This document shows positions 1,993 through 26,208 of a stretch of DNA of 64,000 nt, one piece after another. The notes under the pieces were generated by a model, which made no database searches, had not been told where the DNA came from, and saw nothing but the letters and a program-made list of their open reading frames with translations. The stretch comes from Schmidtea polychroa (lineage: Eukaryota). The stretch lies in contig CM097885.1 in the NCBI GenBank assembly GCA_044892525.1, positions 682,001 to 746,000 of the forward strand, given 5' to 3'. Position 1 is the first letter of the stretch, and each line of letters begins with the position of its first letter. Both the position numbers and the translations under genes were made by a program.

Positions 1993-2789
1993 CAATTAAA
2001 TTTATGTGAATAATAAAATATATATTGTGAATTATTTGACTTCGTTAATTAAAATATGTTTTATCATTTAATAATTCATTTGTCCAATTAATTTAGATAA
2101 TTAGTTTTAAGTAAGAATTATTATTTATCATGAAAACTTTGCTTTGTTTTGAAAAATTAATGCCCATTTTATTTTAAATTAACACAGCTTTATTTTATGA
2201 TAATTACTAATTAAAATTTTATTCAAATTGAAATATTATTGTTACAATTTACACTCTTGTTAGAATATATTAAATGTAAATGTAAAATAATAACAATAAA
2301 AAAATAATAATAATAATAAATAAATAAAAATTAAATTAAAAAAAAAATTAATTAAATAACGTAAGTAATTAAAATAAAATATTAATAAATAATTAATTAA
2401 TTAAATGTAATAAATTGAAAATTAACTAAAGTAATTAATTAAAACAAAAAACATAATAAAATAATTAATTAATAAATTTAAAAAAAAAATTAAATAACAT
2501 TAAAAAAAAAATAAATAGAAATGATTCTATTGACCTATATTTGATCTGGACATTGGGATGACCTTGAAAGTGTCCTGGAGTCTATATATACTACTAATTA
2601 TAATCATAATTTTCTTTAATTTAACCCTTTATTTACTTAATTTAGCCCTTGTTAGTAGATGGATTGGGCACCGCTGGCACAGGGCACCGCTAGCACAGTA
2701 CCCCCCCTCCCCCCTCCTTCCGTCGAAAAGATTTTCAAAAATATTCTAAGTCTAAAAGTACATTTTTTTTCAAGGTCAAATTTAAACAA

Positions 2790-4180: not shown

Positions 4181-4359
4181 TATTATTATTTTTAAAAATA
4201 TTATTATTTTTATTATTATTTTTAAAAAATATTATTATTTTTAATTTTTTCAAAGTTCCCGTCAACGAAAATTAATAATCGATATCTCATTTTAAAGATC
4301 AATCCAAGGCCTTTCGAATGAGCCATATATCTTGTTATTCAGATTACTATTTCTAAAGA

Positions 4360-4471
<112 letters not shown>

Positions 4472-4566
4472 CTATATACACCGAGTCTATATACTCCGAG
4501 TCTTTCCGACAAAATATTTTGTCCCCCTATGGGTAATGCTCACAAGGGTACTGGTCACGCTCAACA
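4472..4566 (-). promoter_or_regulatory. Conserved ~90-bp cassette, copy 1 (putative promoter)
   Basis: Minus strand reads TACCCTTG..TACCCATAGGGGGACAAAATATTTTGTCGGA..CTCGGAGTATATA; contains the perfect palindrome GACAAAATATTTTGTC (4508-4523). Confidence 0.5.
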
Positions 4567-5428
4567 AATCAGCAAATCAACAAAACAAACATTTATTTAA
4601 ACAATAAAATAATGTAAAATTAACAAAGGTAAACTAAATATTGATGTACTACTATTCGCAGCAATATTGTTTGAAAACAAACGGCAATACAAAAGTACTC
4701 ATCGATGACTCATTTATTTTTTGAAGAAAGACAATGACGCACCCATGGGATATATTATTTATTACTATCAATAGTATTAATATTATTATTATTAATATTA
4801 TTATTATTATTATTATTATCATCAAGTTTTAATAACCAAGGTAATTTAAACAAAGACCATGACTCAGTCGCTGAATCATCAAGGTCGTTCTATTTTTAGT
4901 AACAAAGACATCTATTTTTAGTAACATTTTGAATATATTTTTAGTAACATTTTTGATCCGATCATTGATCCGATGACTCGCCAAGGTCATTCTATTTTTA
5001 GTAACAAAGACATCTATTTTTGTTCCAGCGGTTTATTTTTGTTTAAATTATCGAATACGTAATAATTTAATTTTGTTTAAATTGTTAATAATAATATTTT
5101 TATTTTTTGTTTTAATTATCGAATACGTAATAATTTAATTTTGTTTAAATCGTTGATTATATAATAATATTTTTATTTTTTGTTTTAATTATCGAATACG
5201 TAATAATTTAATTTTGTTTAAATCGTTGATTATGTAATAATAACATGTTTTGTTTTAATTATCGATTACTCAATAATTTAATTTTGTTTAAATCGTTGAT
5301 TATGAAATATTTTTGGATTTAATTGTCGATTACGTAATAATTTAATTTATCATTATAATTGGGAAAGATATTACCGCTCGCGCGGAAAATGTTATTTTCA
5401 AAATTATTATTTTCGAAATTTTAATCAA

Positions 5429-5483
<55 letters not shown>

Positions 5484-5508
5484 AATGTTATTATTATTAG
5501 TATTAATC

Positions 5509-5600
5509 TATATAGTCCGAGTTTATCCGACAAAATATTGTGTCCCCCTATGTGTATTTGTAGAAAGGGTACTGGTCACATTCAACATGTCGCAAGGGTA
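5509..5600 (-). promoter_or_regulatory. Conserved cassette, copy 2
   Basis: Same consensus as copy 1; mirrored by 31456-31547. Confidence 0.5.
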
Positions 5601-5785
5601 TTAATATTATTATTATTATTATAACATTAATATAACTTCATTATTTTCAAGGTCATATTATTATTTTTCAAAATATTATTATTTTCAAGGTCATATTATT
5701 ATTTTTCAAAATATTATTATTTTCAAGGTCATATTATTATTTTTCAAAATATTATTATTTTCAAGGTCATATTATTATTTTTCAA

Positions 5786-6297
5786 AATATTATTATATTT
5801 TTCAAGGTCATATTATTATTTTTCAAAATATTATTATATTTTTCAAGATCATATTATTATTTTTCAAAATATTATTATTTTCAAGGTCATATTATTATTT
5901 TTCAAAATATTATTATATTTTTCAAGGTCATATTATTATTTTTCAAAATATTATTATATTTTTCAAGGTCATATTATTATTTTTCAAAATATTATTATTT
6001 CAAAGTCATATTATTATTTTATTTTAGTTTTGTTTAAATCGTTGATTATATGATAATATTTTTATTTTGGTTTTAATTATCGATTACTTAATAATTTTTT
6101 ATTTTTTTTAATTATCGATTACTTAATAATTTAATATTGTTTAAATCGTTAATTATATAATAATATTTTTTTTGTTTTAATTATCAATTATGTAATAATT
6201 TAATTTTGTTTAAATCGTTGATTGTATGATAATATTTTTATTTTTGTTTTAATTATCGATTACTTAATACCTTAATTTTGTTTAAATCGTTGATTAT
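5786..6297 (+). repeat. 512-bp direct repeat, left of the Polinton
   Basis: Identical by eye to 20656-21167 at constant offset 14870. Confidence 0.9.
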
Positions 6298-7271
6298 ATA
6301 TATACTCAACCAAAACAGCCCCCCAACAAAAACATGCCTCCAAATCACTTAAGCTATTAGAAAAACAACCTAAAACTTATACTTTTATAGTATTTTAACC
6401 CTATATTTTGAAAACAACCACCTTTAATGACTCTAACTGTTTTAATCTTTAAAGCCTCAAACTCAAAAGCTTCAAACTAAAAAGAGAATAGAAAAGAAAA
6501 TGGCATTATGAAAAAGTTAGAGGGCTATTTGATCTTTATCAGATTATTGATTTTAAATTATATAAATTAAAAAATAAATGAAAAATAGTAAAACTGCTCT
6601 GAGGGGACAGTGGTATTTTTTTTTTTTTTTTTTTAACTGTCCCCTCAACAGTTTTTTTTGATCCGGATCATTTTTTTTATTTATCAACCTCTTTCGTTTA
6701 TCGAATCTCTTCCAATATACAAGCTGGCCAGACTCATACATCAGAATCAATCCGATAATAGCAGCACACCTTATTATTCGCTTCTCGCTCGAATACGATT
6801 TCATCGGCGTTTTAAGTGTGCTGCTCGAAAGTACAAATGAATTCGAAAGCGAATTCGAAAGAGGTCCGAAAACAACTGAGAAATAAATGTGCACATTACC
6901 GGGATCGATCCGGGGGTGTTCGAAAGACAGGTGGCGATAATTACCGGTTCGCCACCATCACCCGTTTCAATATTTTTTTTTTCATATTTATGTTTAAAAA
7001 ATAATTAAATAATAAAAAAATAAAATAAAATAAAATAAATAAAATAAAATATACAAGTACTTTATAAATATAAGATACCCACACTATTTTCAATATTATT
7101 TTCAAATTTTTAATATTATTTTATGTTGAAAAAAAACTAACCTCAGATGTGATTTGAACCGCTAGCATTTTGAACCACTGTGTCAGTCTAGCCCACTGCG
7201 CCATCTAGGATTGGATTTTTTGTCATTTTTTAAATTTTTATTATAAAAAATGAATAATATAAATCTTAAAA
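6298..7271 (+). repeat. Left terminal inverted repeat of the Polinton (terminal AGTAGT missing)
   Basis: Imperfect reverse complement of 19634-20645. Confidence 0.9.
7129..7210 (-). ncRNA. Putative Pol III type-2 small RNA in the left TIR
   Basis: Minus strand: A box TGGCGCAGTGG (7203-7193), B box GGTTCAAATC (7160-7151), T8 terminator (7136-7129). Confidence 0.5.
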
Positions 7272-7286
7272 AAATTTTTTCTAAAA

Positions 7287-10200
7287 ATGAATTGTAATAT
7301 TTGCAATAAAGTTTTTAAAAATAAAACTGGATTAATTTCTCACTTAAAATCGAAAGCTCATTTATTAAAAGAAAATAATCTTAATGATACAAATTCAAAA
7401 CTTTGTCTTAAATGTAAAGGAAGATTTCTACATTCTGGATATAATAAACATTTTGAAAATTGTATCGGGAAAATTAGAGAAATATTTACATGTCCTCATT
7501 GTAACTTTTCAACAAAACTAAATTTCTATTATTTAGAACATATAAAAGAATGTAAAAATAAAAAACAAAATTCTGACGATGAGGAATGTCATTCAGAAGG
7601 AGAACCTGATCATGTTGAAAGAGAAAAATATAACTGGGATAATTTTAATCATATAGATGAATTTCAATTAAAAATTAATGGGCCTGCAACTCCTGGAGAA
7701 TATATAAATAAAAATAAAAAATATATTAAAAATTCTTTCACTGAAGCTTTAAAAAATTATAAACCGACAAGGTATAATGTTATAAAATATAAAATTATAA
7801 TCAAAGCAAAATACTGGCGAGGAGCAGAAGAAAAGACAACACCCTTAGATGTTGAAATTGGAATACCCTTTAAATATTTATTTTCAATTAAAGGATTTGA
7901 TAAAACCATCAAAGAAATAATTAAAGCAGCAGAAGCAAAACAAGAGGAAGTAGAAAATGAATTAGGAGATTCAAACTTAGTATTCAACTCTTTCCAAACT
8001 TTAGTGATTGATTATTGGAGAGGATTACCACCCAATCCTAAATCTTATATTCCTACACCCTTTAAATCTAAAAATGTTATAAATGTACAGAATAATGATA
8101 ACAAATGTTTCATCTGGTCAATACTTGCACATTTACATCCTCAAGCAACAAATCCCCAAAGAGTTTCAAAATACAAACAATATGAAAATGAATTAATATT
8201 TCCCAAAGGATTCAAACACCCAATGAAACTAGAAGACATTCCAGAATTTGAAAAATTAAATAATCTTAAACTTAATATTTATGAACATGTTATAGGGAAA
8301 GAAATTATTCCAATTTATATTTCAGATAGTGGAACCAAGGATAATGGAGCACAGGACAATGAGATATATCTTTTAATCTTGGAACAAGAAAATAATCAAC
8401 ATTATGTTTTAATAAAAAACTTTCAAGCTTTTACATCTCCAGAGAATCCAACTAGTGGAGGAGGAACATGTAAAAGATGTCTTTATTATACAACAACTAA
8501 AAACTCTATGATTAAACATACAAGATTTTGTGAAAAAGATGATCCAGCTTTAATTAAAATGCCTAATAATCCCAAGATGTATTTTAAAAACTTTTCAAAT
8601 TTACTACAAACAGTTGGAGTTCTTTATGGTGACTTTGAATCTATAAACCATAAACAAGATTTGGTTTATCAATATTTAAAAATAATAGAAAAAAATAAAC
8701 TCATGGATTTATGGAACTCCTCAGTAGAGAAGATGAAACCAGAGAGGATGAAAGCCTTTCTAAGAAAAAGAAATAAACCTAATAGTGTTAAAAAAACTAA
8801 ACAATTACCATCTGCTTATAAATTATTATTTAAAAGTAATTATCCTGAACTCACAGAATCTAGAGAATATTCAATTCTAGGAGGTACCCCTGAAGAAGTC
8901 TTGAATCATTTTACTAAAAATATAAATGATCTAGAACATGAAATATTTAAAATATTAAAAACAAAGTATCCTCAAAATATTTCTAATCAACAACAACAAG
9001 AATATGAAAATACTTCCAACTGTTGGATGTGTAAACAGAATATTCTTCCTGATGAAAAAGTTATAGATCATGATCATTTAAAAAAGGAAAATAATTATCG
9101 AGGAGCAGCTCATAAAAATTGCAATCTTAATTGCCATACTCCTAAATTTATACCTGTTATATTTCATAATCTTTTTGGATATGACATACATCTATTTATT
9201 AAACATTTAGCAGCAAATGCTAAAAACTCTTTCAAAGTTATCGGCTTAACAAAAGAAAAATATAAATCAGTTGAATATGGGAAATTAAAATTTATAGACT
9301 CGTTAAACTTTCTTCAAATGTCTCTAGATGGAATAGCTAAAACAATGAAACCAGAAGATTTTAAAATCACTCGAGAATTCTTGGAAAAAAATAATATTCC
9401 TCTAGAAGAATATCCTACATGTTTAGCAAAAGGAATATATCCTTATGACTATGTTGACTCGTTTGAAAGATATAATGAAACAAGTCTTCCTAGCCAAGAA
9501 GATTTCTATTCACAACTTCAAAAAAATCATATTACAAATCAAGAATATTCTCGAGCAAATAAAATGTGGGAATTATTCAAGTGTAAAACTTTAGGAGAAT
9601 ATACAAGTATGTATTTATCCTTGGATGTTTATATTCTAGCAGATTGCTTTGAAGAATTTACAAAATCTTTTGTTCTTAAACCCTATAATTATATAACTGC
9701 ACCCTCTTTAGCTTGGGATACTATGTTATATACCATTTGGACTTCAAATATAGAAGATGCTGATAAAATTATAGATCTTTTAACTAACCTCGATATGTTT
9801 AACCAAATTAAAACAAACATTAGAGGAGGAGTCTCTTCAGTAATGGGGAATAGAGAAATAAAAGCTAGAAATGCAATAACTACTAGCCGAAGACTATCTA
9901 AACACCCTGATGATCCATATATGAAAATTAACAATGAGGAATTAAAAGAATTATTAGAAACAATGAAAAATCCTATATTTATACTTTATATAGATGCAAC
10001 AGCTTTATATTCAGGAATTATGACTCAATATTTACCAATGAGTGATTTCACTGAAATAGAGAACCCAACAGATGACCTTATGAAAGAAATACTTTCAACA
10101 TCGAAAGATTCTCCAATAGGTTACTTTATAGAATGTGACCTCGACTATCCAGATGATATAAAATCAGGAACAAGATATTTTCCTTTAGCTCCCATAAGAA

Positions 10201-11567
10201 GAAAGATTGATATCAACGAACTTTCTGAATGGCAAATCTCACAAGATAAACCTCCAACAATGAAACTTCTTTGTGATCAAACAGATCGAAGGTTTTATCT
10301 TTGTCACTATAGACTCCTCCAATTTTATCTCTCACGAGGAATGATATTAAAAAAAGTTCATAGTGTCATAAGATTTAAACAAGCTCCATTCATGAAAGCT
10401 TTTATCGAGGAGAACATTAGGTGTCGAAACATTGCAAAAAGAGAAGGTAACCTTTTTAAAGATAATAATTATAAACTTTTAAACAATTCAGTCTTTGGGA
10501 AAACAATGGAGAATGTTGATAAATATACTCATATTGAACTCCTAACAAATACTACCAAAGATATTAAGCGTTATAATCGCATGCTAGGAAAGCCTACATT
10601 TAAAAACGCACAAGTATTTTCTGAAAATCTTACTGCAGTAGAATTAAAAAATTATGAGAAAACATATAACAAACCAATATTTATAGGGTTTACAATTTTA
10701 GAACTTTCAAAATTACAAATGTATGAAACATATTATAACATCTTACAACCTATATACGGAGCAAATATATCAATGCATGCAATGGATACAGATTCAATGT
10801 TTTTAACAATAAGAACTCATGATTTACAAAAAGATATGAAAGAAAATCCTATACTTTCAAATTTAATAAATTCATCTGGAGAACTATTTTCGTTTAAAGA
10901 TGAAAAACCTTTTACTCCTATAGAAAATGGAATATTTATTCGTGCTAAACAATATTCATACGAAACATTTAGAAACCCTGAATTTATAACTAGATCATTT
11001 ATATTTAAAACTCCAGAAACAGAAGAAACCATTACACATAGATATCCTATATTTCCTAAAGAAGAAAAACCTGTAAAGGATAACAGATGTAAAGGAATAC
11101 AGAGAGTGGTGGCAAAGAATCTTTCTCATCAAGATTATATAGATACATTGAATCCAAATCATAAAGATAAAATTGATGAAATACATCAACTTAAAAGTGA
11201 AAACCATGATATTCACTTGATAGAATCTCAAAAAGTATCATTATCAAATTATGATGATAAAAGATTCATACTAAGTGATTTAAAGACAACTCTACCTATT
11301 GGAAATAATTTAATCCCTATAATAAAAAATCTAGAAAAGTTGAATAAGTTATATGATACAAAGATTACTGATCTTGATATTTATAATGTTGAAATTATTT
11401 ATCCCGAGAGAGAAATCGAGAAACCTTTATATTCTCAAGTTTTTAATCCTATATGTTTAGAACTTAAATATTTTAATACTGATCCTGAATATATAAAAGG
11501 TCTAAGTGATAAAGAATTTAAAGATCATAAATTAATGATTCATAGGTTGGCTTTCAACCATAACTGA
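7287..11567 (+). CDS. POLB: Protein-primed family B DNA polymerase with N-terminal C2H2 zinc fingers and endonuclease VII-like domain
   Basis: 1426-aa intact ORF; YGDFES exonuclease, DHDH..YRGAAH..CN, KGIYPY, YIDATALY, KLLNNSVFGK, MDTDS, YDDKRF. Confidence 0.97.
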   Translation: MNCNICNKVFKNKTGLISHLKSKAHLLKENNLNDTNSKLCLKCKGRFLHSGYNKHFENCIGKIREIFTCPHCNFSTKLNFYYLEHIKECKNKKQNSDDEECHSEGEPDHVEREKYNWDNFNHIDEFQLKINGPATPGEYINKNKKYIKNSFTEALKNYKPTRYNVIKYKIIIKAKYWRGAEEKTTPLDVEIGIPFKYLFSIKGFDKTIKEIIKAAEAKQEEVENELGDSNLVFNSFQTLVIDYWRGLPPNPKSYIPTPFKSKNVINVQNNDNKCFIWSILAHLHPQATNPQRVSKYKQYENELIFPKGFKHPMKLEDIPEFEKLNNLKLNIYEHVIGKEIIPIYISDSGTKDNGAQDNEIYLLILEQENNQHYVLIKNFQAFTSPENPTSGGGTCKRCLYYTTTKNSMIKHTRFCEKDDPALIKMPNNPKMYFKNFSNLLQTVGVLYGDFESINHKQDLVYQYLKIIEKNKLMDLWNSSVEKMKPERMKAFLRKRNKPNSVKKTKQLPSAYKLLFKSNYPELTESREYSILGGTPEEVLNHFTKNINDLEHEIFKILKTKYPQNISNQQQQEYENTSNCWMCKQNILPDEKVIDHDHLKKENNYRGAAHKNCNLNCHTPKFIPVIFHNLFGYDIHLFIKHLAANAKNSFKVIGLTKEKYKSVEYGKLKFIDSLNFLQMSLDGIAKTMKPEDFKITREFLEKNNIPLEEYPTCLAKGIYPYDYVDSFERYNETSLPSQEDFYSQLQKNHITNQEYSRANKMWELFKCKTLGEYTSMYLSLDVYILADCFEEFTKSFVLKPYNYITAPSLAWDTMLYTIWTSNIEDADKIIDLLTNLDMFNQIKTNIRGGVSSVMGNREIKARNAITTSRRLSKHPDDPYMKINNEELKELLETMKNPIFILYIDATALYSGIMTQYLPMSDFTEIENPTDDLMKEILSTSKDSPIGYFIECDLDYPDDIKSGTRYFPLAPIRRKIDINELSEWQISQDKPPTMKLLCDQTDRRFYLCHYRLLQFYLSRGMILKKVHSVIRFKQAPFMKAFIEENIRCRNIAKREGNLFKDNNYKLLNNSVFGKTMENVDKYTHIELLTNTTKDIKRYNRMLGKPTFKNAQVFSENLTAVELKNYEKTYNKPIFIGFTILELSKLQMYETYYNILQPIYGANISMHAMDTDSMFLTIRTHDLQKDMKENPILSNLINSSGELFSFKDEKPFTPIENGIFIRAKQYSYETFRNPEFITRSFIFKTPETEETITHRYPIFPKEEKPVKDNRCKGIQRVVAKNLSHQDYIDTLNPNHKDKIDEIHQLKSENHDIHLIESQKVSLSNYDDKRFILSDLKTTLPIGNNLIPIIKNLEKLNKLYDTKITDLDIYNVEIIYPEREIEKPLYSQVFNPICLELKYFNTDPEYIKGLSDKEFKDHKLMIHRLAFNHN

Positions 11568-11661
11568 AACCAACGATATTTAATTTTTTAATAATAAAAT
11601 GTCGACAATTAATTTAAGCAACTATAGCAACCTGATCTACTTTTTTAAAAATACACCCATT

Positions 11662-12273
11662 TTATAAGTAAGAATTCTTTAACCATTTTTCTCGAGATGT
11701 TTTTTTATTACTTATAACATTAGCCACCATGCCCTCCCTTTTTAATCTTATAACCTCATTCTTTATATCTTGTATTATTTGATTTGATTTCATTATTTCT
11801 TCGTCTGTCAGGATTCCATCTTCCAAAGCTTTTAATTGAAATAAAAATAATTTAGAGATTCCTAATTCTATTGATAAACAAACTTCTCTATATAAACTTT
11901 TCTTTTTAGAAGTATAAGATAATGAAACTATTTCAGTTAAGAAACCATCAGCCACAGAAATACTTCCAAGTATTACAGGTGCAAGAGTAACAACTGGTAA
12001 AGTTATGGGTAAAATAACTGTTAATATTGCAGATGCAAATCCTAAAGAATAACCTATAACTTTTAAAACTGTATTCCCTTTATTCCATCTATTTTTAATT
12101 TTTTTATAATGCTTTAATAAATCTTGTAAATGTAAGGTTTCTGATTTAAATTCTTTTACTCTCATAATTTCAAGTTCTGTGGGAGCCGAGGCCTTGGAAC
12201 CTTTGTGACCTTCGGAATAATATCCTGATGATCTCAATTCGGGGTAAATTTTTTCTTCTCTTACTTCTTCCAT
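11662..12273 (-). CDS. Polinton accessory membrane-active protein (PW/gasderminX-like)
   Basis: N-terminal IYPEL and ASAP motifs; hydrophobic hairpin VIGYSLGFASAILTVILPITLPVVTLAPVILGSISVA; located between pPolB and virion genes. Confidence 0.6.
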   Translation of the reverse strand: MEEVREEKIYPELRSSGYYSEGHKGSKASAPTELEIMRVKEFKSETLHLQDLLKHYKKIKNRWNKGNTVLKVIGYSLGFASAILTVILPITLPVVTLAPVILGSISVADGFLTEIVSLSYTSKKKSLYREVCLSIELGISKLFLFQLKALEDGILTDEEIMKSNQIIQDIKNEVIRLKREGMVANVISNKKTSREKWLKNSYL

Positions 12274-12281
12274 TTTAATAA

Positions 12282-13292
12282 TTAAAAAAATAAGACTTTA
12301 TTCTTCTGAGCACCATCTGGTACCAATACTCGGATATCAAAAGAAACTCTTGTTGAGAGGATATCTTTATACAATTCTCTCAATGCTTTACGAACTTCAT
12401 CAACATCAACCTTTTTTTCATAAAATATTAAATCTATATATTGTACAAGTGAACTAGAAAAATGAATATTCTTAGTTTTAACTTTATGTAGTCCATGTGA
12501 ATGAGTATTAACATACCAATCTCCGTGTGGTAAATCATAACTAGTCATTATAACATCACCCTTTTCAAGCTTACTATTATAATCACATTTCACAAACCAT
12601 TTCATTCTTTCATTATCATCATCAAACAAAAAGAAATAAGGATCAATAATTTTTACAACCATAAAAACACCCCATTCTTTACTGTTTGTTGTTATTAAAC
12701 TTGGTTCTATAAAATGTTTATATGTATGGGGTAATAATGTTTTATTCTGTTCTAATTCAGCAGCTCTTTTTCTAATACTATGTGTGGTGTTAATGTGTGT
12801 TCCATGAGACTCTAAATTTGAAATTCTTTTATTAAATGATGTAATCATCTCATTTATTATATTATATATTGCATTAAAAATAGTATTCATAATTTGTTTA
12901 TCTTTAGAATTTAATATAGCAGTATTTAACTTTACAACTTGTTCAGTTAACAGACTTTGTAACTTGTCAAATTTATCATTAAATCGTTGTTCGATATTAT
13001 TAAGCTTTGATTCCATTGAATCAAATTTTGTTGTTAATGAACTTTCAATTCTTGTTGTTGTTAAATCAGTATATTTTTTAACACCATCTACATATTTCTT
13101 ATTAACTGCATCAGCTTCATCAGTTGGAAAAGATAATTCTTTTATCTTGTGTCCATTTAAAATTAAATCACCCTTCATTGAATCACCTCTTTCATTAATA
13201 TATTTATTTTCTGTTAAAGTTAATATTTCTTCTGTATTAAACCCTGTTTTTATTGTTCCACCACCTCTATTACATGGAATATAAGAACTCAT
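12282..13292 (-). CDS. Putative fibre/spike-like virion protein
   Basis: GDSMKGDLILNGHKIKELSFPTDEADAVNKKYVD resembles the tail-fibre-type motif common in Polinton proteins; followed by a coiled coil and a beta-rich C-terminus; adjacent to the penton gene. Confidence 0.5.
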   Translation of the reverse strand: MSSYIPCNRGGGTIKTGFNTEEILTLTENKYINERGDSMKGDLILNGHKIKELSFPTDEADAVNKKYVDGVKKYTDLTTTRIESSLTTKFDSMESKLNNIEQRFNDKFDKLQSLLTEQVVKLNTAILNSKDKQIMNTIFNAIYNIINEMITSFNKRISNLESHGTHINTTHSIRKRAAELEQNKTLLPHTYKHFIEPSLITTNSKEWGVFMVVKIIDPYFFLFDDDNERMKWFVKCDYNSKLEKGDVIMTSYDLPHGDWYVNTHSHGLHKVKTKNIHFSSSLVQYIDLIFYEKKVDVDEVRKALRELYKDILSTRVSFDIRVLVPDGAQKNKVLFF

Positions 13293-13332
13293 TTATTAAT
13301 AATTTAAAATGGACGGAGTCCCCTGAGAGGAA

Positions 13333-14097
13333 CTAAACCTGTTTCAAATGTAAATACATTGAAATCTCTTCTCCATTAAAATCAATCAATTCTCCTTCTT
13401 GATTAAGAATTTTAAAATTAATATCCATTATATATTTTCTACATAAAGGTAAATAATTTGGAGGATTCATTCTTTCAACTATTTTATATCCCATAGGAAC
13501 TGTGTTTGAGGGAAAGGAATATAAAACATTTGTTTGTTTACCATTATTATAAGAACCTGTTATACAATCGCAATGAATATTTATTGTGTTTGTATTTATT
13601 ATTTTTATAATATGTTCTGATGTTATTATTTTATCTTCTTTTATTGTTATATCCATAGGTTTAAATCCTAAAACTGTGTGAAAGAAACAATTATCTAAAA
13701 AACTAATTTTTATATTCTTCAAAGTCATTACACATTTTGAAGTTGGTATATCCATTTTAATTTTAATACCTTCATTTGTTTTTTTAGAAAGTATATCATT
13801 TAAATCTTTTATCTCATATGCCCCAGGTTCTATTGTTATAATTTCTGGTTTATGCCCATCACGAGTTTGAATAGTAAATTTATTATTATCTTTAGTTATA
13901 TTAAAAATAGTATTATAAGCACAAAACCATAATAGCCCCAATTCATAATTTAAATTTTGATCTAATTTAATTGAATCTTGAAAGTTTATAGTAAACTCTG
14001 ATTCTTTTGAATTTATAGATAAAGTTCTTGAATATTTATCTTACATTATGTTTACCATTTTTTTTAAATTATCTTCCGGAGGGTTGTGAAGCTCCAT
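13333..14097 (-). pseudogene. Minor capsid protein (penton) with one in-frame nonsense codon
   Basis: NTIFNI..NNKF, IEPGAYEI, INIHCDCITGSY, LIDFNGEEIS motifs; the frame extends up to ATG 14097 with a single TAA at 14043-14041. Confidence 0.8.
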
Positions 14098-14130
14098 TTC
14101 TTTAGTAGTAAATTCATATAGTAAAAATCC

Positions 14131-14595
14131 TTATAGTAGAGATTCTAGATCATTATAAATTTCTTGAATTATAGATTCAAAATCCTGCGTATGCCCCTTT
14201 CCCTCTCCCTTATTCAATCTATACAAAACATATAAACTTAAAATACCACATATTTTAGTATTCAAAGGTTGAACTTGTAAAGAGTTAAAAGTATAACCAT
14301 TTGGGGAATCAATCGGAGAACCCCTCAAGAGATAATCTTCAACTTCTTTAGTAGGTTTAATCCCAAAAGAATCAAAGTAGATAGACTTCTTATATATACA
14401 AACCCAATGAGATCCTTTTTCATTTGAATTTTGATAATTGATTATTATATTCAGGGGACTCTCCAGACTTGATAATTCATCATTCATTAATATTTTAATT
14501 TTTAAATTTAAATAATTTGCATAATCTTTTAAATCAAAATTTGTTTTTGCATTTATTCCAAATGTTTTTAAAAAATCTAATATTGAAGGAGTCAT
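14131..14595 (-). CDS. PRO: Adenain-like cysteine (maturation) protease
   Basis: GSHWVC..YFDSFG..QVQ......CG catalytic H/D/Q/C pattern. Confidence 0.93.
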   Translation of the reverse strand: MTPSILDFLKTFGINAKTNFDLKDYANYLNLKIKILMNDELSSLESPLNIIINYQNSNEKGSHWVCIYKKSIYFDSFGIKPTKEVEDYLLRGSPIDSPNGYTFNSLQVQPLNTKICGILSLYVLYRLNKGEGKGHTQDFESIIQEIYNDLESLL

Positions 14596-14617
14596 TTTGT
14601 ATTTTAAAACTTCGTAT

Positions 14618-15499
14618 TTATAACTTCGTATACTTATTAAATTTATCTTTGGAAATTATTCCTTGTTTTAACAAATCATTAGAAATCTTTAAAATATCAG
14701 AATCTAAATTATTATGTCCTGCTTTCCTTGCAGCTAATAGTTTTCTTAATTCAATAAAAATATTGATGGGATTTGGTTTACCACCTTCACTAATTAATCC
14801 CTCTCCCTCTGTAACAACATAACCCTTTTCATTTTTATTTAAATAATTCTTTAAATCTTGAATATATTTTGCTTTAGAACTAGCTTTTATTAATCTTATT
14901 AAATTTAAATATTTTTTAATTTCTTCAACATCATCTGAAGAATATCCACAAAGTAATCTATAAAAATCATCTGTAAATTCAAAGTCTAAATATTCATTAT
15001 TATAAACATTTTGTGAATGAATACGTGATTTATTTTCTGAATTTGAATATAAATTAAAGTTTTGTTTATTAATTGTTATTATTTGATATCCTTCAGTATT
15101 AGTATTAAATGTGGGTCTAATTGAAGGAGGTAAATCATCTCTAATTTTAGGATCAACTTTAAGAGGTTTTGTTTTTAAAAACATTTCTTCTTCTTCCACA
15201 TTAGAAATTCTTCTGCGTTTTCTTTGATTTCTTTCAGGATGGTTTTCACTGGATTCTTTTTCTTTATCCTGCCACTCTAGTTCTTTTATTTTTTGTTTTT
15301 TATCTTCTAACTCTTTAAATTTTGCTTGCTCATTGAAATCTTCCAACTCTTTTATAGCTTTAATTGTTGGCCCCTGTTGTTGTGTTATTACCTCATTTAA
15401 TATTATAGATTCAGCATGTTGAGTTGTATCTTTTTTATTATATTTATCTTGTTCTGATTGTAATTTTTTTAAAAGTGCTAATCTTTCTTCATATACCAT
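14618..15499 (-). CDS. Polinton accessory/core protein of unknown function
   Basis: 293-aa intact ORF; RKRRR basic patch; C-terminal LLAARKAGHNN..LLKQGII segment typical of Polinton proteins. Confidence 0.65.
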   Translation of the reverse strand: MVYEERLALLKKLQSEQDKYNKKDTTQHAESIILNEVITQQQGPTIKAIKELEDFNEQAKFKELEDKKQKIKELEWQDKEKESSENHPERNQRKRRRISNVEEEEMFLKTKPLKVDPKIRDDLPPSIRPTFNTNTEGYQIITINKQNFNLYSNSENKSRIHSQNVYNNEYLDFEFTDDFYRLLCGYSSDDVEEIKKYLNLIRLIKASSKAKYIQDLKNYLNKNEKGYVVTEGEGLISEGGKPNPINIFIELRKLLAARKAGHNNLDSDILKISNDLLKQGIISKDKFNKYTKL

Positions 15500-15521
15500 T
15501 TTAATGGTATCAAAAATGGTA

Positions 15522-16100
15522 TCATAGTTCGAAGGGCTTCAAGTATAATCGTTTACCATTTTTAGTTTTACAAAGGCATCCATTCTTTAAAGATTTACAT
15601 ATTTTTTTTAAATCTTCTTTATCTTTTGAAGATAGAGATTCAGATGTAGAAATTTGATTTTTTAAAAAATCATTTAAACCTCTACCTTTATAAGGATCAA
15701 GATAGAGACCTTTGCCCTGAGACTTTTGCCGACTCCCCTCATATGGATTAAGATAGAGACCCTTTCCAACGGACACTCCCCCTTTAGCTTGCCCTACCTT
15801 CTTCATTGAATCGATTTCAGTTTGTAGTTTTTCTTTTTCTAGGTCTGTCTTTTGAGATTCTTTAGCTTTTTGAACTGTAGTTGCAATTCCTCCAGCTATT
15901 CCAGCAGCACCTGATAAACCAGCAATGATTGCAGGTATTAAAGCAGCTAATGGAAGAATGCCACCTTCTTTAGCTTCGTGGAGCTTCGCTCTAACTTGTT
16001 CTTTTACATGTTTTCCAATAAAATATTTTTTACCATCAATTACTACTGATTTATTTTTATTTGAATTTATTAATTCTTGCAAAGATTCTTCAGTTGTCAT
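15522..16100 (-). CDS. Putative virion core precursor with membrane-active peptide and protease-site repeats
   Basis: True ATG likely 16100 (MTTEES); EGG-ILPLAALIPAIIAGLSGAAGIAGGIAT hydrophobic stretch; repeated GKG-LYLxPY. Confidence 0.65.
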   Translation of the reverse strand: MTTEESLQELINSNKNKSVVIDGKKYFIGKHVKEQVRAKLHEAKEGGILPLAALIPAIIAGLSGAAGIAGGIATTVQKAKESQKTDLEKEKLQTEIDSMKKVGQAKGGVSVGKGLYLNPYEGSRQKSQGKGLYLDPYKGRGLNDFLKNQISTSESLSSKDKEDLKKICKSLKNGCLCKTKNGKRLYLKPFEL

Positions 16101-16116
16101 TTTATAATAAATAAAA

Positions 16117-16908
16117 ATGGATACTTGGAAACCAATTTTAAATAGACATAAGAGTAAATTCAATAATAAAGTATTTCCTGATAATTTTAGATTATTAATT
16201 GTTGGTTCTTCTGGATGTGGAAAGAATGTACTTGTTTTGAGAATGTTACTTGAAGATGATTTTTTAGATTATAATAATTTAATCTTTTATTCTACAACCA
16301 TAAATCAACCAGAATTACAACTTTTGAAATGTGGATTTGAAAATAAATTAACTAAAAAAGCAATAATTGATATTTTTAAAAATCAACATAGGTGTCCTGA
16401 AGAAGTTTTTCAACCTTGTGATATGGTTGATTGGTATAAGGAAAAGATTTTAGAATCAGATATTAGTAATAAAAATGATTATATTTGTGAAGAAGGGCAG
16501 GAGGCAATTCAAGTTTTATTCTCTAATAAACCTGAAGATGTTTTACATTGTGATTTACTTCCTAAAGATAAAAAGAATCTAGTTATATTTGATGATGTTG
16601 TTAATATGAAAAATCAAGAGATTCAAAAGAGTTACTTTACACGAGGTCGACATAATAATTGTAATGTTATTTATATATCTCAAACATATTATGCTTTAGA
16701 TAAAAATTCAATAAGAAATAATTCCAATTGTTTTATATTTTTTAAATTAGATCGCCGTGATAAGAATATGATTTATAATGATTTATTTTCAAATGTTGAA
16801 CCTGATAAGAATATGTTTGATATGTTTGTTGATAATCATTGGAAAGAAAAATATAATTATATTTATTTGGATAGAGAAGAAGCTGAAATATGGAAAAGTT
16901 TGTTTTAA
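16117..16908 (+). CDS. A32/FtsK-like genome packaging ATPase
   Basis: Walker A GSSGCGK, Walker B LVIFDD, RGRH arginine finger, YISQ, IRNNS. Confidence 0.95.
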   Translation: MDTWKPILNRHKSKFNNKVFPDNFRLLIVGSSGCGKNVLVLRMLLEDDFLDYNNLIFYSTTINQPELQLLKCGFENKLTKKAIIDIFKNQHRCPEEVFQPCDMVDWYKEKILESDISNKNDYICEEGQEAIQVLFSNKPEDVLHCDLLPKDKKNLVIFDDVVNMKNQEIQKSYFTRGRHNNCNVIYISQTYYALDKNSIRNNSNCFIFFKLDRRDKNMIYNDLFSNVEPDKNMFDMFVDNHWKEKYNYIYLDREEAEIWKSLF

Positions 16909-16923
16909 CTTGTTTTCTATAGT

Positions 16924-18333
16924 TCAGAAATCTGTTTTCTGTAGTTCATTATTATAAAATCTACCTAATATTTTTTCATTATTTAAATCAAAGATGCTAT
17001 ATGTTATTGGAGTTGTATAATTTATTTTATTTATAATAAAAATTTCATTTGTCCATTTTGCTGTGAATCCTTTTTCAAATTTATTTTTATATTTAAATAT
17101 TCTTACTCGGTCACCAATTTTAAACTTTGGTTTTTCAATAACATCATTTTCAATATTTACCACTTTAATGGTTTCAGGCTTCATGGAAGCATTTAAAGGT
17201 GTTAATTTTATAGAACTATGTACATCATTATTATATTCATTTACAATCTTTTGTAACAATTCATTGTTCCATTTTTGTTTTCCAATAGCAGTAAAATATT
17301 TCCACATTTTATTTTTTAATGTTCTATTTAATCTTTCAACTACGACTGCTTTTCCTTCGTTTTCTGTTGAATATAATTTAATATCATTTTCATTTAAAAA
17401 CTTTGTAAAAGCTTTGTTATAAAATTCTGTTCCTTTATCACACCATAAATATTTTGGGATTCTTTGATTTTCTTCAAATATATTTTCAAATGCTTCTGTA
17501 ATAGAATATCCTGTTTTATTTTCTAAACATCTTGCAAAAGCAAATCTTGTATATAAATCTATTACAGTTAAAATTATTTTATATTTTTCAGGGTCTGATG
17601 ATTTGGGCATAAAGACTAAATCTGCAGACCATGTTTGATCTTTTTCATGTACTTGAACTTTTAAATATTTTTTATTTTTTCTAAATTCATGGTGTAATTC
17701 CTTTGCATATTTTATTTCTGATTCTGTTGGGGTTTGTAAACTAGTCTTGGCTGTACTCTCGAGGGATCTTTCAATGTCTGCTTGTTCGATAATCTTTTTA
17801 TAAGCAACATCTTTTGCTTTCCTAGGAAGTCTTGCACCCATGGTGATCGGACTGTGTCCTAAGCCTATGAAAATCTTACCTTTCATTGCTAATTTAACTA
17901 GAGCTCTTTGAATCTTTTCTTGGGTTGATGGATTTTGGATACTATTTAAATCATGTATTAAATTCACATCTGCAACATGTCTATCTCTAAGATTTGTTGA
18001 ATTGTATGCAATGTCATGTTTTAAAGCTGCTTGATCAATTCTATTTATTGGTTCTTCTCCTTGTTTGGGATTATTATTTTCATCTAATCTAATATCTAAT
18101 CTTGTTCCTGGTCCGGTGTAGTTGTGTTTAAATAAATGTCTTTCACCTGGATATTTTTCTGTAGTAAAAGGTTTTAATATTGAAGATGTTGTTTTTGAAG
18201 ATTGCAAATCGCCTCCAGCTCGTGGAATTAGGTCACCTACTGTATGTTTTTTAGTTTTAAGATGGCTTGCTTTATGATGTCTTGTAACTTGACAATTACA
18301 AGTTTCACATCTCCAATATTTATTTAAAGACAT
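16924..18333 (-). CDS. INT: Retroviral-type (rve) integrase with N-terminal zinc finger and parvovirus-type PLA2 domain
   Basis: WSADL, LTVID, CDKGTEF, ERLNRTLK DDE core; GDRVRI..FEKG..W C-terminus; HNYTGPGT..IDQAALKHDIAY. Confidence 0.95.
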   Translation of the reverse strand: MSLNKYWRCETCNCQVTRHHKASHLKTKKHTVGDLIPRAGGDLQSSKTTSSILKPFTTEKYPGERHLFKHNYTGPGTRLDIRLDENNNPKQGEEPINRIDQAALKHDIAYNSTNLRDRHVADVNLIHDLNSIQNPSTQEKIQRALVKLAMKGKIFIGLGHSPITMGARLPRKAKDVAYKKIIEQADIERSLESTAKTSLQTPTESEIKYAKELHHEFRKNKKYLKVQVHEKDQTWSADLVFMPKSSDPEKYKIILTVIDLYTRFAFARCLENKTGYSITEAFENIFEENQRIPKYLWCDKGTEFYNKAFTKFLNENDIKLYSTENEGKAVVVERLNRTLKNKMWKYFTAIGKQKWNNELLQKIVNEYNNDVHSSIKLTPLNASMKPETIKVVNIENDVIEKPKFKIGDRVRIFKYKNKFEKGFTAKWTNEIFIINKINYTTPITYSIFDLNNEKILGRFYNNELQKTDF

Positions 18334-18371
18334 TTTAAAATGTTAAAATATCAGGGATTATATCAAGAATC

Positions 18372-19655
18372 TCACCTAACATTTTCAATAATTGAAATCT
18401 TTCCACCATATAATTTCATTTCTATTTTCTTTTCTTCTAATATTAATGTATATACTTTAGCTTTAAAATTAGAATCCTTTGTTACATGAAGTGTAACATC
18501 AACATTATTTATGGCTAGGCGATCATCTTGATCTGAAACATTTATACAAAATATAGAATATAAATTTTTGAAATCTTCTAAACTTAATTGCGGTTCAACT
18601 TTGAAATCATAACATGTTTCAATATAATTTAGATATGGGAATATGTTTTCATTATTTTCAATATTAAATTCCATTCTATTTATTGGATAATAAGAACTAT
18701 TTAATTGAATTTGGATTGTTTTTAAATTATCATCCCCAATCTTTTGAATAAATAGATTGTTATTTTTTTGGAAAGATGAATCTGTTTCTTTGAATCCAAT
18801 CAAGATATATCTTGGTCGGTATGCTAAATTTGCTACCTTTATAGAATATGTTGAACCCTCTGTCATACTAAATTCACTACAGATTATATTTAAATAATTT
18901 ACATTTATAGACTTGTTGGAATTTAATCTTTCAAGGAGTTTAATCTCAGAATGTGGGTTTAATGTCCATTCAGGTATATGTAATTCAAGTGTTGATAATT
19001 TTAATTTAGCTTTTGTATCTACAGCTCCATAGAACAATCTTTTATCACCTTCTACTCTATTACAGATGAATTCTATAAAAACATTATGAAGTCTACGATT
19101 ATAGTTTTGAAGGAATCCAAACAAGTGTTTTAATTCAAAATAACCTTCAAATTTTTTAGATTTATAAAGTTCAGCTCTTTTATAGTAACCATAATTTATA
19201 TCTAAACCATCTTTATCTAAATCTCCTTTATTAACATCAGGAATCCAGCCTGTTAATTCACCATATTCATTTTTATAATCACAACCAGTCAAAATAAAAT
19301 TTAACATTGTAGAATATACTCCCGGATGTAAAACAGTTTCAATTTCTGATGATCCTAGTTTTAATCTCATATTGGATAATAAATTTGGAAAGAAATTATT
19401 TTCTAGGGTTATATCTTTGTTTGCTTCAATTTCTAATTCGATTTTATAATATAATTTGGCATTACAAATATCTATAGGGTTTGATGTTTGAAGAGATTGA
19501 AAAACTATATCACCCCTACGATTTAAGTTTGCAATAGATCCTGAAGTTGGGGAGATTTTAAGTACATCGTTTTTCTTGATTTCATGAGTAAATTCTTTAT
19601 TATAATCAAGATTTAATTTATTTTTTTCTTGAATTTTAAGATTTATATTATTCAT
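18372..19655 (-). CDS. Major capsid protein (double jelly-roll, hexon-like)
   Basis: 427-aa beta-rich ORF with FELKHLFGF, LELHIP, RPRYILIGF, QLNSSYYP, YSIFCINVS motifs; Polinton context. Confidence 0.85.
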   Translation of the reverse strand: MNNINLKIQEKNKLNLDYNKEFTHEIKKNDVLKISPTSGSIANLNRRGDIVFQSLQTSNPIDICNAKLYYKIELEIEANKDITLENNFFPNLLSNMRLKLGSSEIETVLHPGVYSTMLNFILTGCDYKNEYGELTGWIPDVNKGDLDKDGLDINYGYYKRAELYKSKKFEGYFELKHLFGFLQNYNRRLHNVFIEFICNRVEGDKRLFYGAVDTKAKLKLSTLELHIPEWTLNPHSEIKLLERLNSNKSINVNYLNIICSEFSMTEGSTYSIKVANLAYRPRYILIGFKETDSSFQKNNNLFIQKIGDDNLKTIQIQLNSSYYPINRMEFNIENNENIFPYLNYIETCYDFKVEPQLSLEDFKNLYSIFCINVSDQDDRLAINNVDVTLHVTKDSNFKAKVYTLILEEKKIEMKLYGGKISIIENVR

Positions 19656-20655
19656 TTTTATAATAAAAAATTAAAAAATGACAAAAATCCAATCCTAGAT
19701 AGCGCAGTGAGAATAGACTGGCACAGTGGTTCAAATAGATAGCGGTTCAAATCCTAACTACGGTTAGTTTTTTTTCAACATAAAATAATATTAAAAATTT
19801 GAAAATAATAGTGTGGGTATCTTAGATTTATAAAGCAGTTGTATATTTTATTTATTTTATTTTTTTATTAATTAATTAATTTTTAAACATAAATATGAAA
19901 AAAAAAATATTGAAACGGGTGTGGTGGCGAACCGGTAATTATCACCACCAGTCTTTCGAACACCCCTGGATCGATTCTATAATGTGCACATTTATTTCTC
20001 AGTTGTTTTCGGACCTCTTTCGGATTCACTTTCGAATTCATTTGTACTTTCGAGCAGCACGCTTAAAACGCCGATGAAATCGTATTCGAGCGAGAAGCGA
20101 ATAATAAGGTGTGCTGCTATTATCGAATTGATTCTGATGTATGAGTCTGGCCAGCTTGTATATTGGAAGAGATTTGATAAACGAAAGAGGTTGAATAAAA
20201 AAATGATCCGGATCAAAAAAACTGTTGAGAGGACAGTGAAAAAAAAAAAAAATACCACTGTCCTCTCAGAGCAGTTTTACTATTTCATAAAATTTTTTAT
20301 TCTTTTTCAATTTTTTAAGTTTTATATAATTTAAAATCAATAATCTGATAAAGACCAACTCTAGAGTTTGATTACGATCAAAACAGTGCCTCAAGTAGTG
20401 CGTTTATATCCCTAACCAAAATAGCCCTCTAACTTTTTCTTTTCTATTCTCTTTATGTTTTTAGTTTGAAGCTTTTGAGTTTGAGGCTTTAAAGATTAAA
20501 ACAGTTAGGGGTATTAAGGGTGGTTGTTTTCAAAAAATATAGGGTTAAAATACTATAAAAGTATAAGTTTTAGGTTGTTTTTCTAATGGTTTAGGCGTAA
20601 TGGAGGTATGTTTTGTTGGGAGGGCTGTTTTGGTTAGGGATATAAACGCACTACT
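19634..20655 (-). repeat. Right terminal inverted repeat of the Polinton
   Basis: Reverse complement of the left TIR; ends TATAAACGCACTACT. Confidence 0.92.
19693..19775 (+). ncRNA. Putative Pol III type-2 small RNA in the right TIR
   Basis: A box TAGCGCAGTGA (19700-19710), B box GGTTCAAATCC (19744-19754), T8 run (19768-19775). Confidence 0.5.
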
Positions 20656-21167
20656 AATATTATTATATTTTTCAAGGTCATATTATTATTTTTCAAAATA
20701 TTATTATATTTTTCAAGATCATATTATTATTTTTCAAAATATTATTATTTTCAAGGTCATATTATTATTTTTCAAAATATTATTATATTTTTCAAGGTCA
20801 TATTATTATTTTTCAAAATATTATTATATTTTTCAAGGTCATATTATTATTTTTCAAAATATTATTATTTCAAAGTCATATTATTATTTTATTTTAGTTT
20901 TGTTTAAATCGTTGATTATATGATAATATTTTTATTTTGGTTTTAATTATCGATTACTTAATAATTTTTTATTTTTTTTAATTATCGATTACTTAATAAT
21001 TTAATATTGTTTAAATCGTTAATTATATAATAATATTTTTTTTGTTTTAATTATCAATTATGTAATAATTTAATTTTGTTTAAATCGTTGATTGTATGAT
21101 AATATTTTTATTTTTGTTTTAATTATCGATTACTTAATACCTTAATTTTGTTTAAATCGTTGATTAT
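20656..21167 (+). repeat. 512-bp direct repeat, right of the Polinton
   Basis: Begins immediately after ACTACT; matches 5786-6297. Confidence 0.9.
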
Positions 21168-21373
21168 GCAATAATAATTTTTGTTTAAATTATCAATTAT
21201 GTAATAATTTAATTTTGTTTAAATCTTTGATTATATTATTTTTTTTGGTTTAATTATCGATTACCCAATAATTTAATTTATCATTATTATTGGGAAAGAT
21301 ATTAATGCCCGCGCGGAAGATGTTATTTTCAAAATTATTATTTTCAAAGTTTTAATCAATATTATTATTATTA

Positions 21374-21444
<71 letters not shown>

Positions 21445-21935
21445 TCCAAAGTTATTTTGAAAGTTATTATGAAAATTCTTCTTCTTATTATTATTATTAT
21501 AATTTGCAAATATTCATAAAACCTAATTTCTACGTCCATTTCATGCTTTTCAGCATTTTCATGATTATTTCAGGAACATTTTCATCAAATATTTTTCAAA
21601 GTATTATTTTCAAAGAATTATTTTCAAAGAATTATTATTATTATTTTTTATTATTATTATTTTTATTATTATTTGCAAAGTTCTAATTATTATTTTAATT
21701 TAGAAGTTTCATTATTATTATTTACTTAAATATTTATAAAACTTAATTTCTACGTCAATTACATGATTTTCAACATTTTCATCATTTGCATGATTATTTT
21801 AATAATTTTCTACATTTTCAATATTTTCACGATTTTCAACATTTTCATGATTATTTCAGGAACTTTTCATCGAATATTTTTCAAAGTATTATTTTCAAAG
21901 ATTTATTTTCAAATTATTTTCAAAGTTTTTATCAA

Positions 21936-21996
<61 letters not shown>

Positions 21997-22263
21997 GGTA
22001 AAGAAAAATCTAAAATATGGTTTACACACACAACCCATCAACCATTATTATTATTATTATCAATATTAAAAACATAAAATATTTTTACACACACACATGC
22101 ACAATCCATTAAACATTATTATTATTAACGCAAATATTAGTCAAAAACATAAAATATTTTTACACACACACACAACCCATTAACAATTATTATCAATATT
22201 AGTGAAAACCTAAAATATTTTCTACACACATATACAACCCTTTGAACTTTATTATTATTATTA

Positions 22264-22313
<50 letters not shown>

Positions 22314-22473
22314 ATTAGTCAAAAACTTAAAATAATTTTTACACACTAAGTTATGGGGTAGAGAATTATTATATGTTTGCAGTATTCTGTGTTTGCCTTT
22401 ACAGGAAATTGTCAATAAGGAGTGATAATTTTATACATACATTCTATATACACATACCTTTTTAAAATGGATG

Positions 22474-22564
22474 TATATACTCCTAGTCTATCCGACAAGA
22501 TATTCTGTCCCCTATGGGTATTACCAGCAAGGGTACTGGTCACATTCAACATGTCGCAAGGGTA
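22474..22564 (-). promoter_or_regulatory. Conserved cassette, copy 3
   Basis: TATATACTCCTAGTCTATCCGACAAGATATTCTGTCCCCTATGGGTA..CAAGGGTA on the plus strand. Confidence 0.5.
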
Positions 22565-24421
22565 AATTAATTAAGGTTAGTAAATAAAACTTATCACACA
22601 TACTATTTTTAATAATTATTTAAACTATAAAAATCAAGACAAGAGAGGACAAGGCAAAGTTTATGCATTTAGTATTGCCAGGTCTAATGAGCAGTGACCA
22701 AATATCTGTGCCTGAAAGACACGGTGGATATTTGTTCGCGTCCACAAGGGTCGTCTGTGCATCCCCCAAGTGGGGTCAAAAGAACCTGGGCATTATAGCT
22801 TTCCGTACGGAACATTACGCCTAGCATGGGTAGTCAACTACCAGCACATTCGAAACGTATAAAAATACATTACAAAATGCATGCGTCATTGGCACTATAA
22901 CCAAATTAATTAATGTTTTCACTAACAACAATATATATTTACAGAGGCCTCCCACTAGTTGGATTACAACCGCCTACCACGACGATCAGCTTGTAAATAT
23001 ATATTAATTAAGGGATAAAGAGGACCCACCCAACCCTTTTATATTTAATTTACAAATTTTTCTCGCTCTTCTGCTGGTAATCTATCTCAAAATTATCATC
23101 TCCATCGGGCCATTTGGAATACATCTTGCAAATTGGACGTATTTCTTAGTTTCTGATGCGGCGTCAACTATCATTGCTAAAATTTATATTGATTTAAAAG
23201 CAATTAACTTACATTATCTAACATTTTATCGTCACAGGCTTGATAAATTAGTCAACTGTTATTTGTGGTATACTTTTTCCATGTCATTTCCCACCATAAA
23301 ACACAGATACCTAAATATAATATATATATTTTAAAGAATTAATTCATGTCTTACATTAATAATAATATTCTTCAGGTATGACGAGTACTTTACTTAATTG
23401 CTAAAACATCGATTTTTCCCATTTTTTTTGACATTCGTTGAAAGTTTACATAATTTAAGTCTGATAAGTAAACATTCATGTTGAAGGACACCCACAATCA
23501 GCTAATTCATTTAAGAAATCCGGAACTATAACTCCTTTAGTGTTTCACCATTTTGTCTGGTCATCTTCCCCATAATCCAATAATTCATGTTTTAATAAGA
23601 AATCTCTAAATCCAGAACATAAGTCTTTTAGTGTTTCACTATTTTTTCTGGTTTATCTTCTTCATAATTATATAATTCATTTTCTTCATTACTAAGTAAA
23701 ATAATTAAAATATTGTAGTAAATTCTTTATATACTTACTTTATGGATACTAAAACGAAAGAAATAAAGTTATGTGAAAAGTTTATTTAAATAATTTAAAT
23801 TTAGTTATTTAAAAATATTTAAACAATTTAGTTATTTAAGCATATTTAAACATTAATATTATTATATAGTATAATTTTATATAATATTATAATATTATAA
23901 TTTTATGTATTCTAAATTTATTAATAAATACAGTATAATTTTATATAATATTATAATTTTATGTACACTTATATATCCTTCATTTAATGTTTTAAATTCA
24001 AAAATTTATAATGAAGATTCTTTGAATTAAAAAATATTCTGTTAGTATTTCCAGGCAGAAAACAACGAATTCAATAATTAAATCTTAATTTTCATGTTGT
24101 TAGGGTTGTGGCCAGAAGTTAATCGCCATCTAATCGTTTGTTCTCAATTTCGATCATTTTTGTTCAAAACATTCAGGTGAGTTGTTATCTGGAAAGTTTC
24201 TTTTAGCTCAGTTTTGTTAAAACACTCACGGTATTTTTGAGGGACGTGACACTGGAAATAAATTAACAATGGGTGGTCATCCATACATGTTGTTGGTCTG
24301 AGCTGTCGATTTACTTTAGAAATAGGTATATTAAAAACATTTAAGTTATCATTCAGTAAAATAATATAGTATTTTTTAGTTAATTTATAAATAACAGTAT
24401 TTTGATATATCAATAAAGACC

Positions 24422-24512
24422 ATATACTTCGAGTTCATCCGACAAAATATTCTGTCCCCCTATGGGTATTACCAGCAAGGGTACTGGTCACATTCAACAT
24501 GTCGCAAGGGTA
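24422..24512 (-). promoter_or_regulatory. Conserved cassette, copy 4
   Basis: Same consensus. Confidence 0.5.
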
Positions 24513-26110: not shown

Positions 26111-26208
26111 CAGTACCTTTACGACCAGTACCCTTACGACCAATACCCTTACAAGCAGTACCCATAGAGGGAGAAAATATGTTGTCGGATAAACTCAGAG
26201 TATATATA
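26111..26208 (+). promoter_or_regulatory. Conserved cassette, copy 5
   Basis: 15-bp CAGTACCCTTACGAC repeats, core, TATATA; TGAATCAGTCAAATTATCA downstream. Confidence 0.5.

Follow-up and report, generated by a model that had tools for sequence, protein, structure and literature searches.

In a 64,000 nt stretch of the Schmidtea polychroa genome (GCA_044892525.1, contig CM097885.1, positions 682,001-746,000, forward strand; here called the window, with positions counted from its first base), we found a Polinton/Maverick element that is flanked by a 512 bp direct duplication of its target and has one flush and one clipped end. Positions 5786-6297 and 20656-21167 are identical at 512/512 bases, as an earlier note on this DNA had claimed, with zero further matching bases on either side. 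No other exact direct repeat in the window, which is free of N, is as long, and the runner-up is 278 bp. The duplicated sequence spans part of a 38/41 bp minisatellite, a spacer and a minisatellite of approximately 69 bp, all of which belong to an arm of the palindrome that hosts the element. Chance and simple repeat slippage were considered as sources of the duplication and rejected, as the exact match crosses two different minisatellites and begins at the terminus of the element.

At the right end of the element, an ACTACT motif finishes at 20655 and abuts the first base of the right copy (20656) flush, in agreement with the clean right junction reported earlier. The AGTAGT motif is absent at the left end. 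There, the base at 6298 aligns best to position 11 of the right terminus (16/20 identical; 9/20 in the next register), and no filler bases are present at the junction. The loss of terminal bases described in the earlier note is therefore real, but approximately 10 bases are missing rather than 11. One base at the left junction can be assigned to either side, or up to three if the AT run has slipped. In a single contig from a second organism that carries this Polinton family, the left-type end extends approximately 10 bases beyond this copy (30/35 letters shown), consistent with a loss of about this length here.

The hexamers flanking the Polinton differ, the target site duplication is 512 bp instead of 5-8 bp, and an (AG)3 or (AGT)2 motif is found at the right terminus only. 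The missing left terminal motif is damage to this copy and the assignment to Polinton/Maverick is unaffected, though the copy falls outside the definition of an intact Maverick in PMC8097293. The 512 bp duplication with a flush right end and a clipped left end is a confirmed, real feature of the assembly.

Empty site and unlike terminal repeats

The Polinton sits in the left arm of a 31 kb palindromic element (2654-33839; Table 1), and the ordinary 6 bp duplication of this host element is a useful internal control for the 512 bp one. The opposite arm contains the internal empty site that had previously been placed near 30900-31400. On the minus strand, 31416-30904 is 96.0% identical to 5774-6297, includes a single copy of the target, and continues straight from it into the sequence found at 21168 onward. 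This is a paralogous empty site and not an allelic one. Over 5860-6297, the duplicate differs from the opposite arm by one substitution and two indels, and identical differences are present in both duplicate copies, which also both carry a variant 41 bp unit that is absent from the opposite arm. The extra copy was thus made from this arm or from an identical allele. The three shared differences and the repeat-unit structure of both duplicates rule out the opposite arm as the repair template. The host element is itself inserted in an arm of another palindrome (about 2596-35420). TGAGTCA and TCAAGGTCA words, which we take to be AP-1-like and NR5A-like sites, abound in its arm repeats.

The two terminal inverted repeats (TIRs) of the Polinton differ at 50/914 aligned sites (5.5%), with a further 21 gap runs. 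Substitutions cluster in the outer 57 bp, where they are four to five times denser than in the remainder (12/57 and 38/857, respectively; Fisher P 2e-5). A retroviral-type integrase is expected to read this outermost end region. At the rate of divergence of the TIRs, 28 differences would be expected in 512 bp and none was found (P of none 7e-13), which indicates that the TIR differences predate the duplication. Family variation was examined in contigs from four public runs, where the Polinton family is large and diverse; 40 of 86 variant rows were listed, and the summed depth of contigs should not be read as an allele frequency. Of the 21 variant sites listed within the left TIR, 14 have the letter of the right TIR as the other family letter (11-99 contigs, run X14). 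A single disabling change was seen in approximately 12.1 kb of coding DNA, where drift at the TIR rate predicts, on a rough estimate, some 16 stops and >100 indels. The family-variant sites and the near-intact genes rule out old age as the cause of TIR divergence. The TIRs represent different family haplotypes that are most unlike at their tips, and the element is a fairly young mosaic with two unlike ends. Such ends are a possible cause of the bad left end, yet they also feed a recombination alternative (see below).

The right TIR ends in a 262-base segment (20394-20655) that has the terminus on one side and an inner, inverted copy of the terminus on the other. On the left, this inner terminus copy has been deleted, and an inner 62 bp segment is absent from the left TIR. 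One contig, from run X16, has approximately 50 extra bases at the place of the deletion, indicating that the inner segment exists in the family. The 262-base hairpin segment may be a copy-back product or part of a replication origin. It was also considered as a separate mini-element; this was rejected, as the sequence inside it shares homology with the left TIR and it lacks its own duplication.

Origin of the 512 bp duplication

The right end of the Polinton was probably joined by the integrase and the left end attached by DNA repair, yielding the 512 bp duplication and the clipped end. As a single event would account for both features, this is the best reading. The integrase would have transferred the right-end strand at 5785/5786, leaving the other end free. 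A polymerase would then have copied 512 bases of target, either starting at a nick or, following the model for avian sarcoma-leukosis virus (ASLV) and human immunodeficiency virus (HIV), with the trimmed free end serving as primer, and the left end would have been sealed 512 bp downstream with an overlap of at most 1-3 bases. More tentatively, the mismatch between the TIRs may have made the left end a poor integrase substrate; the integrase gene is on the right-TIR side. The left end is predicted not to be reusable, and the 512 bp repeats could let the host loop the element out cleanly.

This reading is supported by the flush integrase-type junction at 20655/20656, the aberrant second end that has lost approximately 10 bases and is accompanied by a large duplication, and the 6 bp duplication produced by Polinton-type ends elsewhere in the window. 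The retroviral precedent invoked in the earlier note is borne out by Varadarajan et al. 2016 (PMC5041404), where aberrant proviruses of ASLV end mutants, and of HIV-1 with integrase inhibitors or a weakened integrase, have one normal end, an often truncated other end and a duplication of mostly hundreds to thousands of bp, the free end being attached by host enzymes. The anatomy of the S. polychroa locus fits that description, as the same note had proposed. Its further proposal, that a Polinton integrase carried out one-ended integration, is supported in part, as rival histories could produce the same sequence.

Several points count against one-ended integration. Homology at the junction is approximately 1 base, compared with the short homologous segment usual in the retroviral model. 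The inner 62 bp deletion in the left TIR is a second lesion that the model does not cover, the premature stop at 14043-14041 means that the copy is not pristine, and a crossover between two insertions would be expected to leave exactly such mosaic TIRs. No feature of the locus ties the duplication in time to the insertion. This is a single case at one locus, with no spanning read and no listed contig over the left junction. Part of 6040-16000 is held by 17 public runs (best share 0.92), four of which were compared at 6110-7700 using short contigs only; in X14, 31,490 contig pieces were placed on 1.6 kb. None of the 32 contig pieces listed, with 39,769 more outside the listing, bridges the left junction at 6297/6298, which is no evidence either way. 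Contigs in X15 and X1 run from 6297 into the empty-site sequence and may stem from the opposite arm or from other copies of the palindrome.

The crossover that the mosaic TIRs bring to mind would have involved two Polintons, each from a different subfamily, that shared one orientation and whose insertion sites on the two alleles were 512 bp apart, and would have generated a hybrid with a flanking duplication. It accounts directly for the 5.5% difference between the TIRs, in a family that is very abundant and diverse and a window that is a nest of such insertions. However, it requires that two insertions occurred independently at one locus, no more than 512 bp from each other, that the left tip was lost for an unrelated reason, and that the two alleles are identical over unstable minisatellites and T-runs in which the arms differ, and we consider it unlikely. 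We also give rather little credence to a normal insertion with a 6 bp duplication and a later left-end break, in the repair of which 512 bp would have been copied from an empty homolog and joined to the trimmed end. The same final sequence could arise through aborted synthesis-dependent annealing or through an event like the hybrid insertions of P and Ac, and the duplication could then be younger than the stop in the putative minor capsid gene. Against this, two events are involved and the empty homolog must be identical over 512 bp. The opposite arm is unfit as a template, and invasion in cis would not begin at base 1 of the right flank, where, once a normal insertion had taken place, the observed register would offer repair no more than 6 bp of homology. 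Alternative transposition of P and Ac keeps transposase-made ends, unlike the clipped left end here, though it is documented as a source of flanking duplications (PMC3744419). On the present sequence, these two histories are not distinguishable from one-ended integration, as crossover or later end repair leaves the same sequence.

An assembly artefact, in which the contig paths of two alleles or loci were joined through the element or the flank was duplicated in silico, seems improbable. A high-copy family within minisatellite-rich palindromes, and a junction absent from the listed contigs, are circumstances that would favour one, and such contexts gave assembly trouble for virophage insertions (PMC8547959). 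Yet the window has no N, each copy of the duplication is in its correct upstream or downstream context and both junctions are precise to the base; an in silico chimera would still require two real insertions 512 bp apart. The duplication might also predate the element, if the arm was already duplicated, the Polinton inserted normally in the second copy, and a deletion then took the intervening DNA along with the left tip. Pseudo-duplication of this kind has been proposed for some long duplications flanking the human endogenous retrovirus HERV-K (PMC5488345), and the arm is full of tandem repeats that differ in copy number between arms. This history, which needs three events, is improbable for the Polinton, as the target is present once in the opposite arm and two copies without any divergence leave little time for such a sequence of events.

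Gene content of the Polinton and its surroundings

The features identified are listed in Table 1. The element includes genes for a protein-primed DNA polymerase B (pPolB), an rve integrase, a packaging ATPase and a double-jelly-roll major capsid protein, all of which are expected of a Polinton/Maverick element. Its size of 14,358 bp and TIRs of approximately 1 kb lie within the ranges of 13-25 kb and 100-1500 bp given for Polintons (10.1101/2023.08.22.554363). The matches of pPolB to PF03175 and of the integrase fusion to PF08398 fit the description of Alpha adintovirus, which combines a pfam03175-type PolB and a PLA2-like gene (PMC8502044). No OTU domain match was found on PolB in a general Pfam scan at E 0.01, and no dedicated OTU profile search was made.

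Table 1. Features of the Polinton, its flanks and its host element, with positions in the window. Pfam matches were called at an E cut-off of 0.01; ORF, open reading frame
Feature	Position	Strand	Basis or remark
Host element, palindrome with Polinton-type ends	2654..33839	.	no ORF of at least 120 aa outside insertion; 6 bp duplication 2648-2653 / 33840-33845
Left copy of target duplication	5786..6297	+	512/512 identity to 20656-21167
Polinton/Maverick element, 14,358 bp	6298..20655	.	Pfam matches and TIRs
Left TIR	6298..7264	+	~10 terminal bases short; deletion near 6528 removes inner inverted terminus copy
Protein-primed DNA polymerase B, 1426 aa, N-terminal zinc finger	7287..11567	+	PF03175 E 2.8e-12
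ORF, 203 aa, no family	11662..12273	-	
ORF, 336 aa, no family above cut-off	12282..13292	-	
Putative minor capsid (penton) gene, one in-frame stop at 14043-14041	13333..14100	-	
ORF, 154 aa, putative adenain-like protease	14131..14595	-	Peptidase_C39 E 0.057, below cut-off
ORF, 293 aa, no family	14618..15499	-	
ORF, 192 aa, no family	15522..16100	-	
A32-like packaging ATPase	16117..16908	+	PF04665 E 9.7e-09
Retroviral-type integrase fused to PLA2-like domain	16924..18333	-	PF00665 E 2.1e-12, PF08398 E 4.1e-09
Double-jelly-roll major capsid protein	18372..19655	-	PF21738 E 1.1e-24
Right TIR, terminal motif intact	19639..20655	-	
Inner inverted copy of terminal 36 bp	20394..20429	+	35/36 identical; can pair with terminus, 36 bp stem (predicted, z -8.2)
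Right copy of target duplication	20656..21167	+	starts at canonical right junction, runs on into sequence as at empty site
Paralogous empty site, one target copy	30904..31416	-	opposite arm of host palindrome

Exonuclease and polymerase motifs were located in pPolB. The integrase has DDE motifs at aa 235, 297 and 331 and is full length when compared with an 88% identical relative. Most of the 120 homologs listed share its fusion to a zinc-finger-like N-terminal stretch and a PLA2 domain of the parvovirus type. The gene at 13333-14100 had no significant library match and, from its motif and position, is presumably that of the minor capsid (penton) protein. Its relatives (246-268 aa) align across the stop, which falls near the start of the gene, and the best is 89% identical. 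Similarly, the product of 14131-14595 had no significant database match, and a motif leads us to presume that it is an adenain-like protease. Searches of PDB, NCBIfam and Pfam gave no name for the small ORFs.

When blastn was used to search the window, no second copy of the Polinton was found. Scans with TIR DNA patterns returned 0 loci in either metagenome or viral contigs, and a capsid protein search of viral contigs gave no confirmed locus.

Further mobile element sequences were noticed elsewhere in the window. The right end of another Polinton, containing a 1449 bp direct repeat, occupies 1-2595, and its other end lies before the window. Near 1181, an end-like motif that is one base short is joined into pPolB coding DNA. 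The structure is either a nested insertion of the same family or a second one-ended/duplication event. A second large palindrome extends over about 35536-62257, with 3.8 kb arms that are 99% identical (40356-44187 and 45590-49397). It holds hAT-like ORFs at 52667-54517 (DUF4371 and Spin-doc zinc finger, both below the cut-off) and pPolB fragments in inverted orientation at 55109-55804 and 59184-60494.

Comparison with known systems and significance

In its size, TIRs, (AGT)2-type terminus, pPolB, integrase, ATPase, double-jelly-roll capsid and PLA2-like domain, the element resembles Polinton/Maverick and adintovirus-like elements (PMC8097293, PMC8502044). It differs from their norm in the 512 bp duplication, the clipped end, the 5.5% divergence of its TIRs and the inner inverted terminus copy. 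Target duplications are 5-8 bp for Polintons (10.1101/2023.08.22.554363), 6 bp for intact vertebrate Mavericks (PMC8097293) and 1-9 bp for mavirus-like elements (PMC8547959).

Like the one-ended integrations of ASLV and HIV, the S. polychroa locus combines an rve-family integrase, one normal junction, a truncated other end and a host duplication of hundreds of bp. It differs in being a natural endogenous DNA element with TIRs and a protein-primed polymerase, for which the intermediate is inferred rather than observed, and in having minimal junction homology and ends that are different haplotypes rather than engineered or drug-blocked. Among HERV-K (HML-2) insertions, target duplications of 61-450 bp were reported, with 6/451 estimated sites >50 bp (Kahyo et al. 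2017, PMC5488345, Table 2). These are also long duplications at endogenous integrase-made insertions, with the same pseudo-duplication caveat and predicted pop-out. HERV-K differs in being a long terminal repeat retrovirus for which end clipping is not a reported rule in that source, and the 512 bp here exceeds its longest duplication, in a scan that stopped at 500 bp. P hybrid element insertion and Ac/Ds alternative transposition likewise place an element between duplicated flanks, but in those cases cut-and-paste transposases work on the ends already resident in two elements or chromatids (PMC3744419). Here, the duplication is not bordered by another element, and one end lacks the precision of an enzyme-made end.

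A search of titles and the starts of abstracts found no published long target duplication for a Polinton; supplements and subscription papers were outside its scope. It is plausible that this locus is the first Polinton example of a process known from retroviruses. To our knowledge, the integration mode of Polintons has been inferred almost wholly from homology. A flush end, a clipped end and a long duplication together are the signature of a reaction in which each of two linear DNA ends undergoes strand transfer on its own and the host then repairs the product. Finding this retroviral-like signature at a Polinton supports a mechanism of the intasome type.

A 6 bp duplication is the criterion by which copies have been chosen or checked in published surveys (PMC8097293, 10.1101/2023.08.22.554363), and these would tend to miss such events. 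As this genome is crowded with these elements, the rate of the event and its link to mismatched TIRs are directly measurable. One locus unconfirmed by reads is a curiosity, but as a class such insertions would be a mutational source of local duplications. We raise, as a possibility that is tentative at best, that Polinton integrases read subfamily-specific ends, and that recombinants with unlike ends integrate one-ended and are rescued by repair synthesis, possibly by their own strand-displacing polymerase, leaving a class of copies with long duplications and clipped ends that 6 bp surveys discard. If such subfamily-specific reading of ends is true, it would provide a natural footprint of the Polinton integration reaction, which has yet to be reconstituted.

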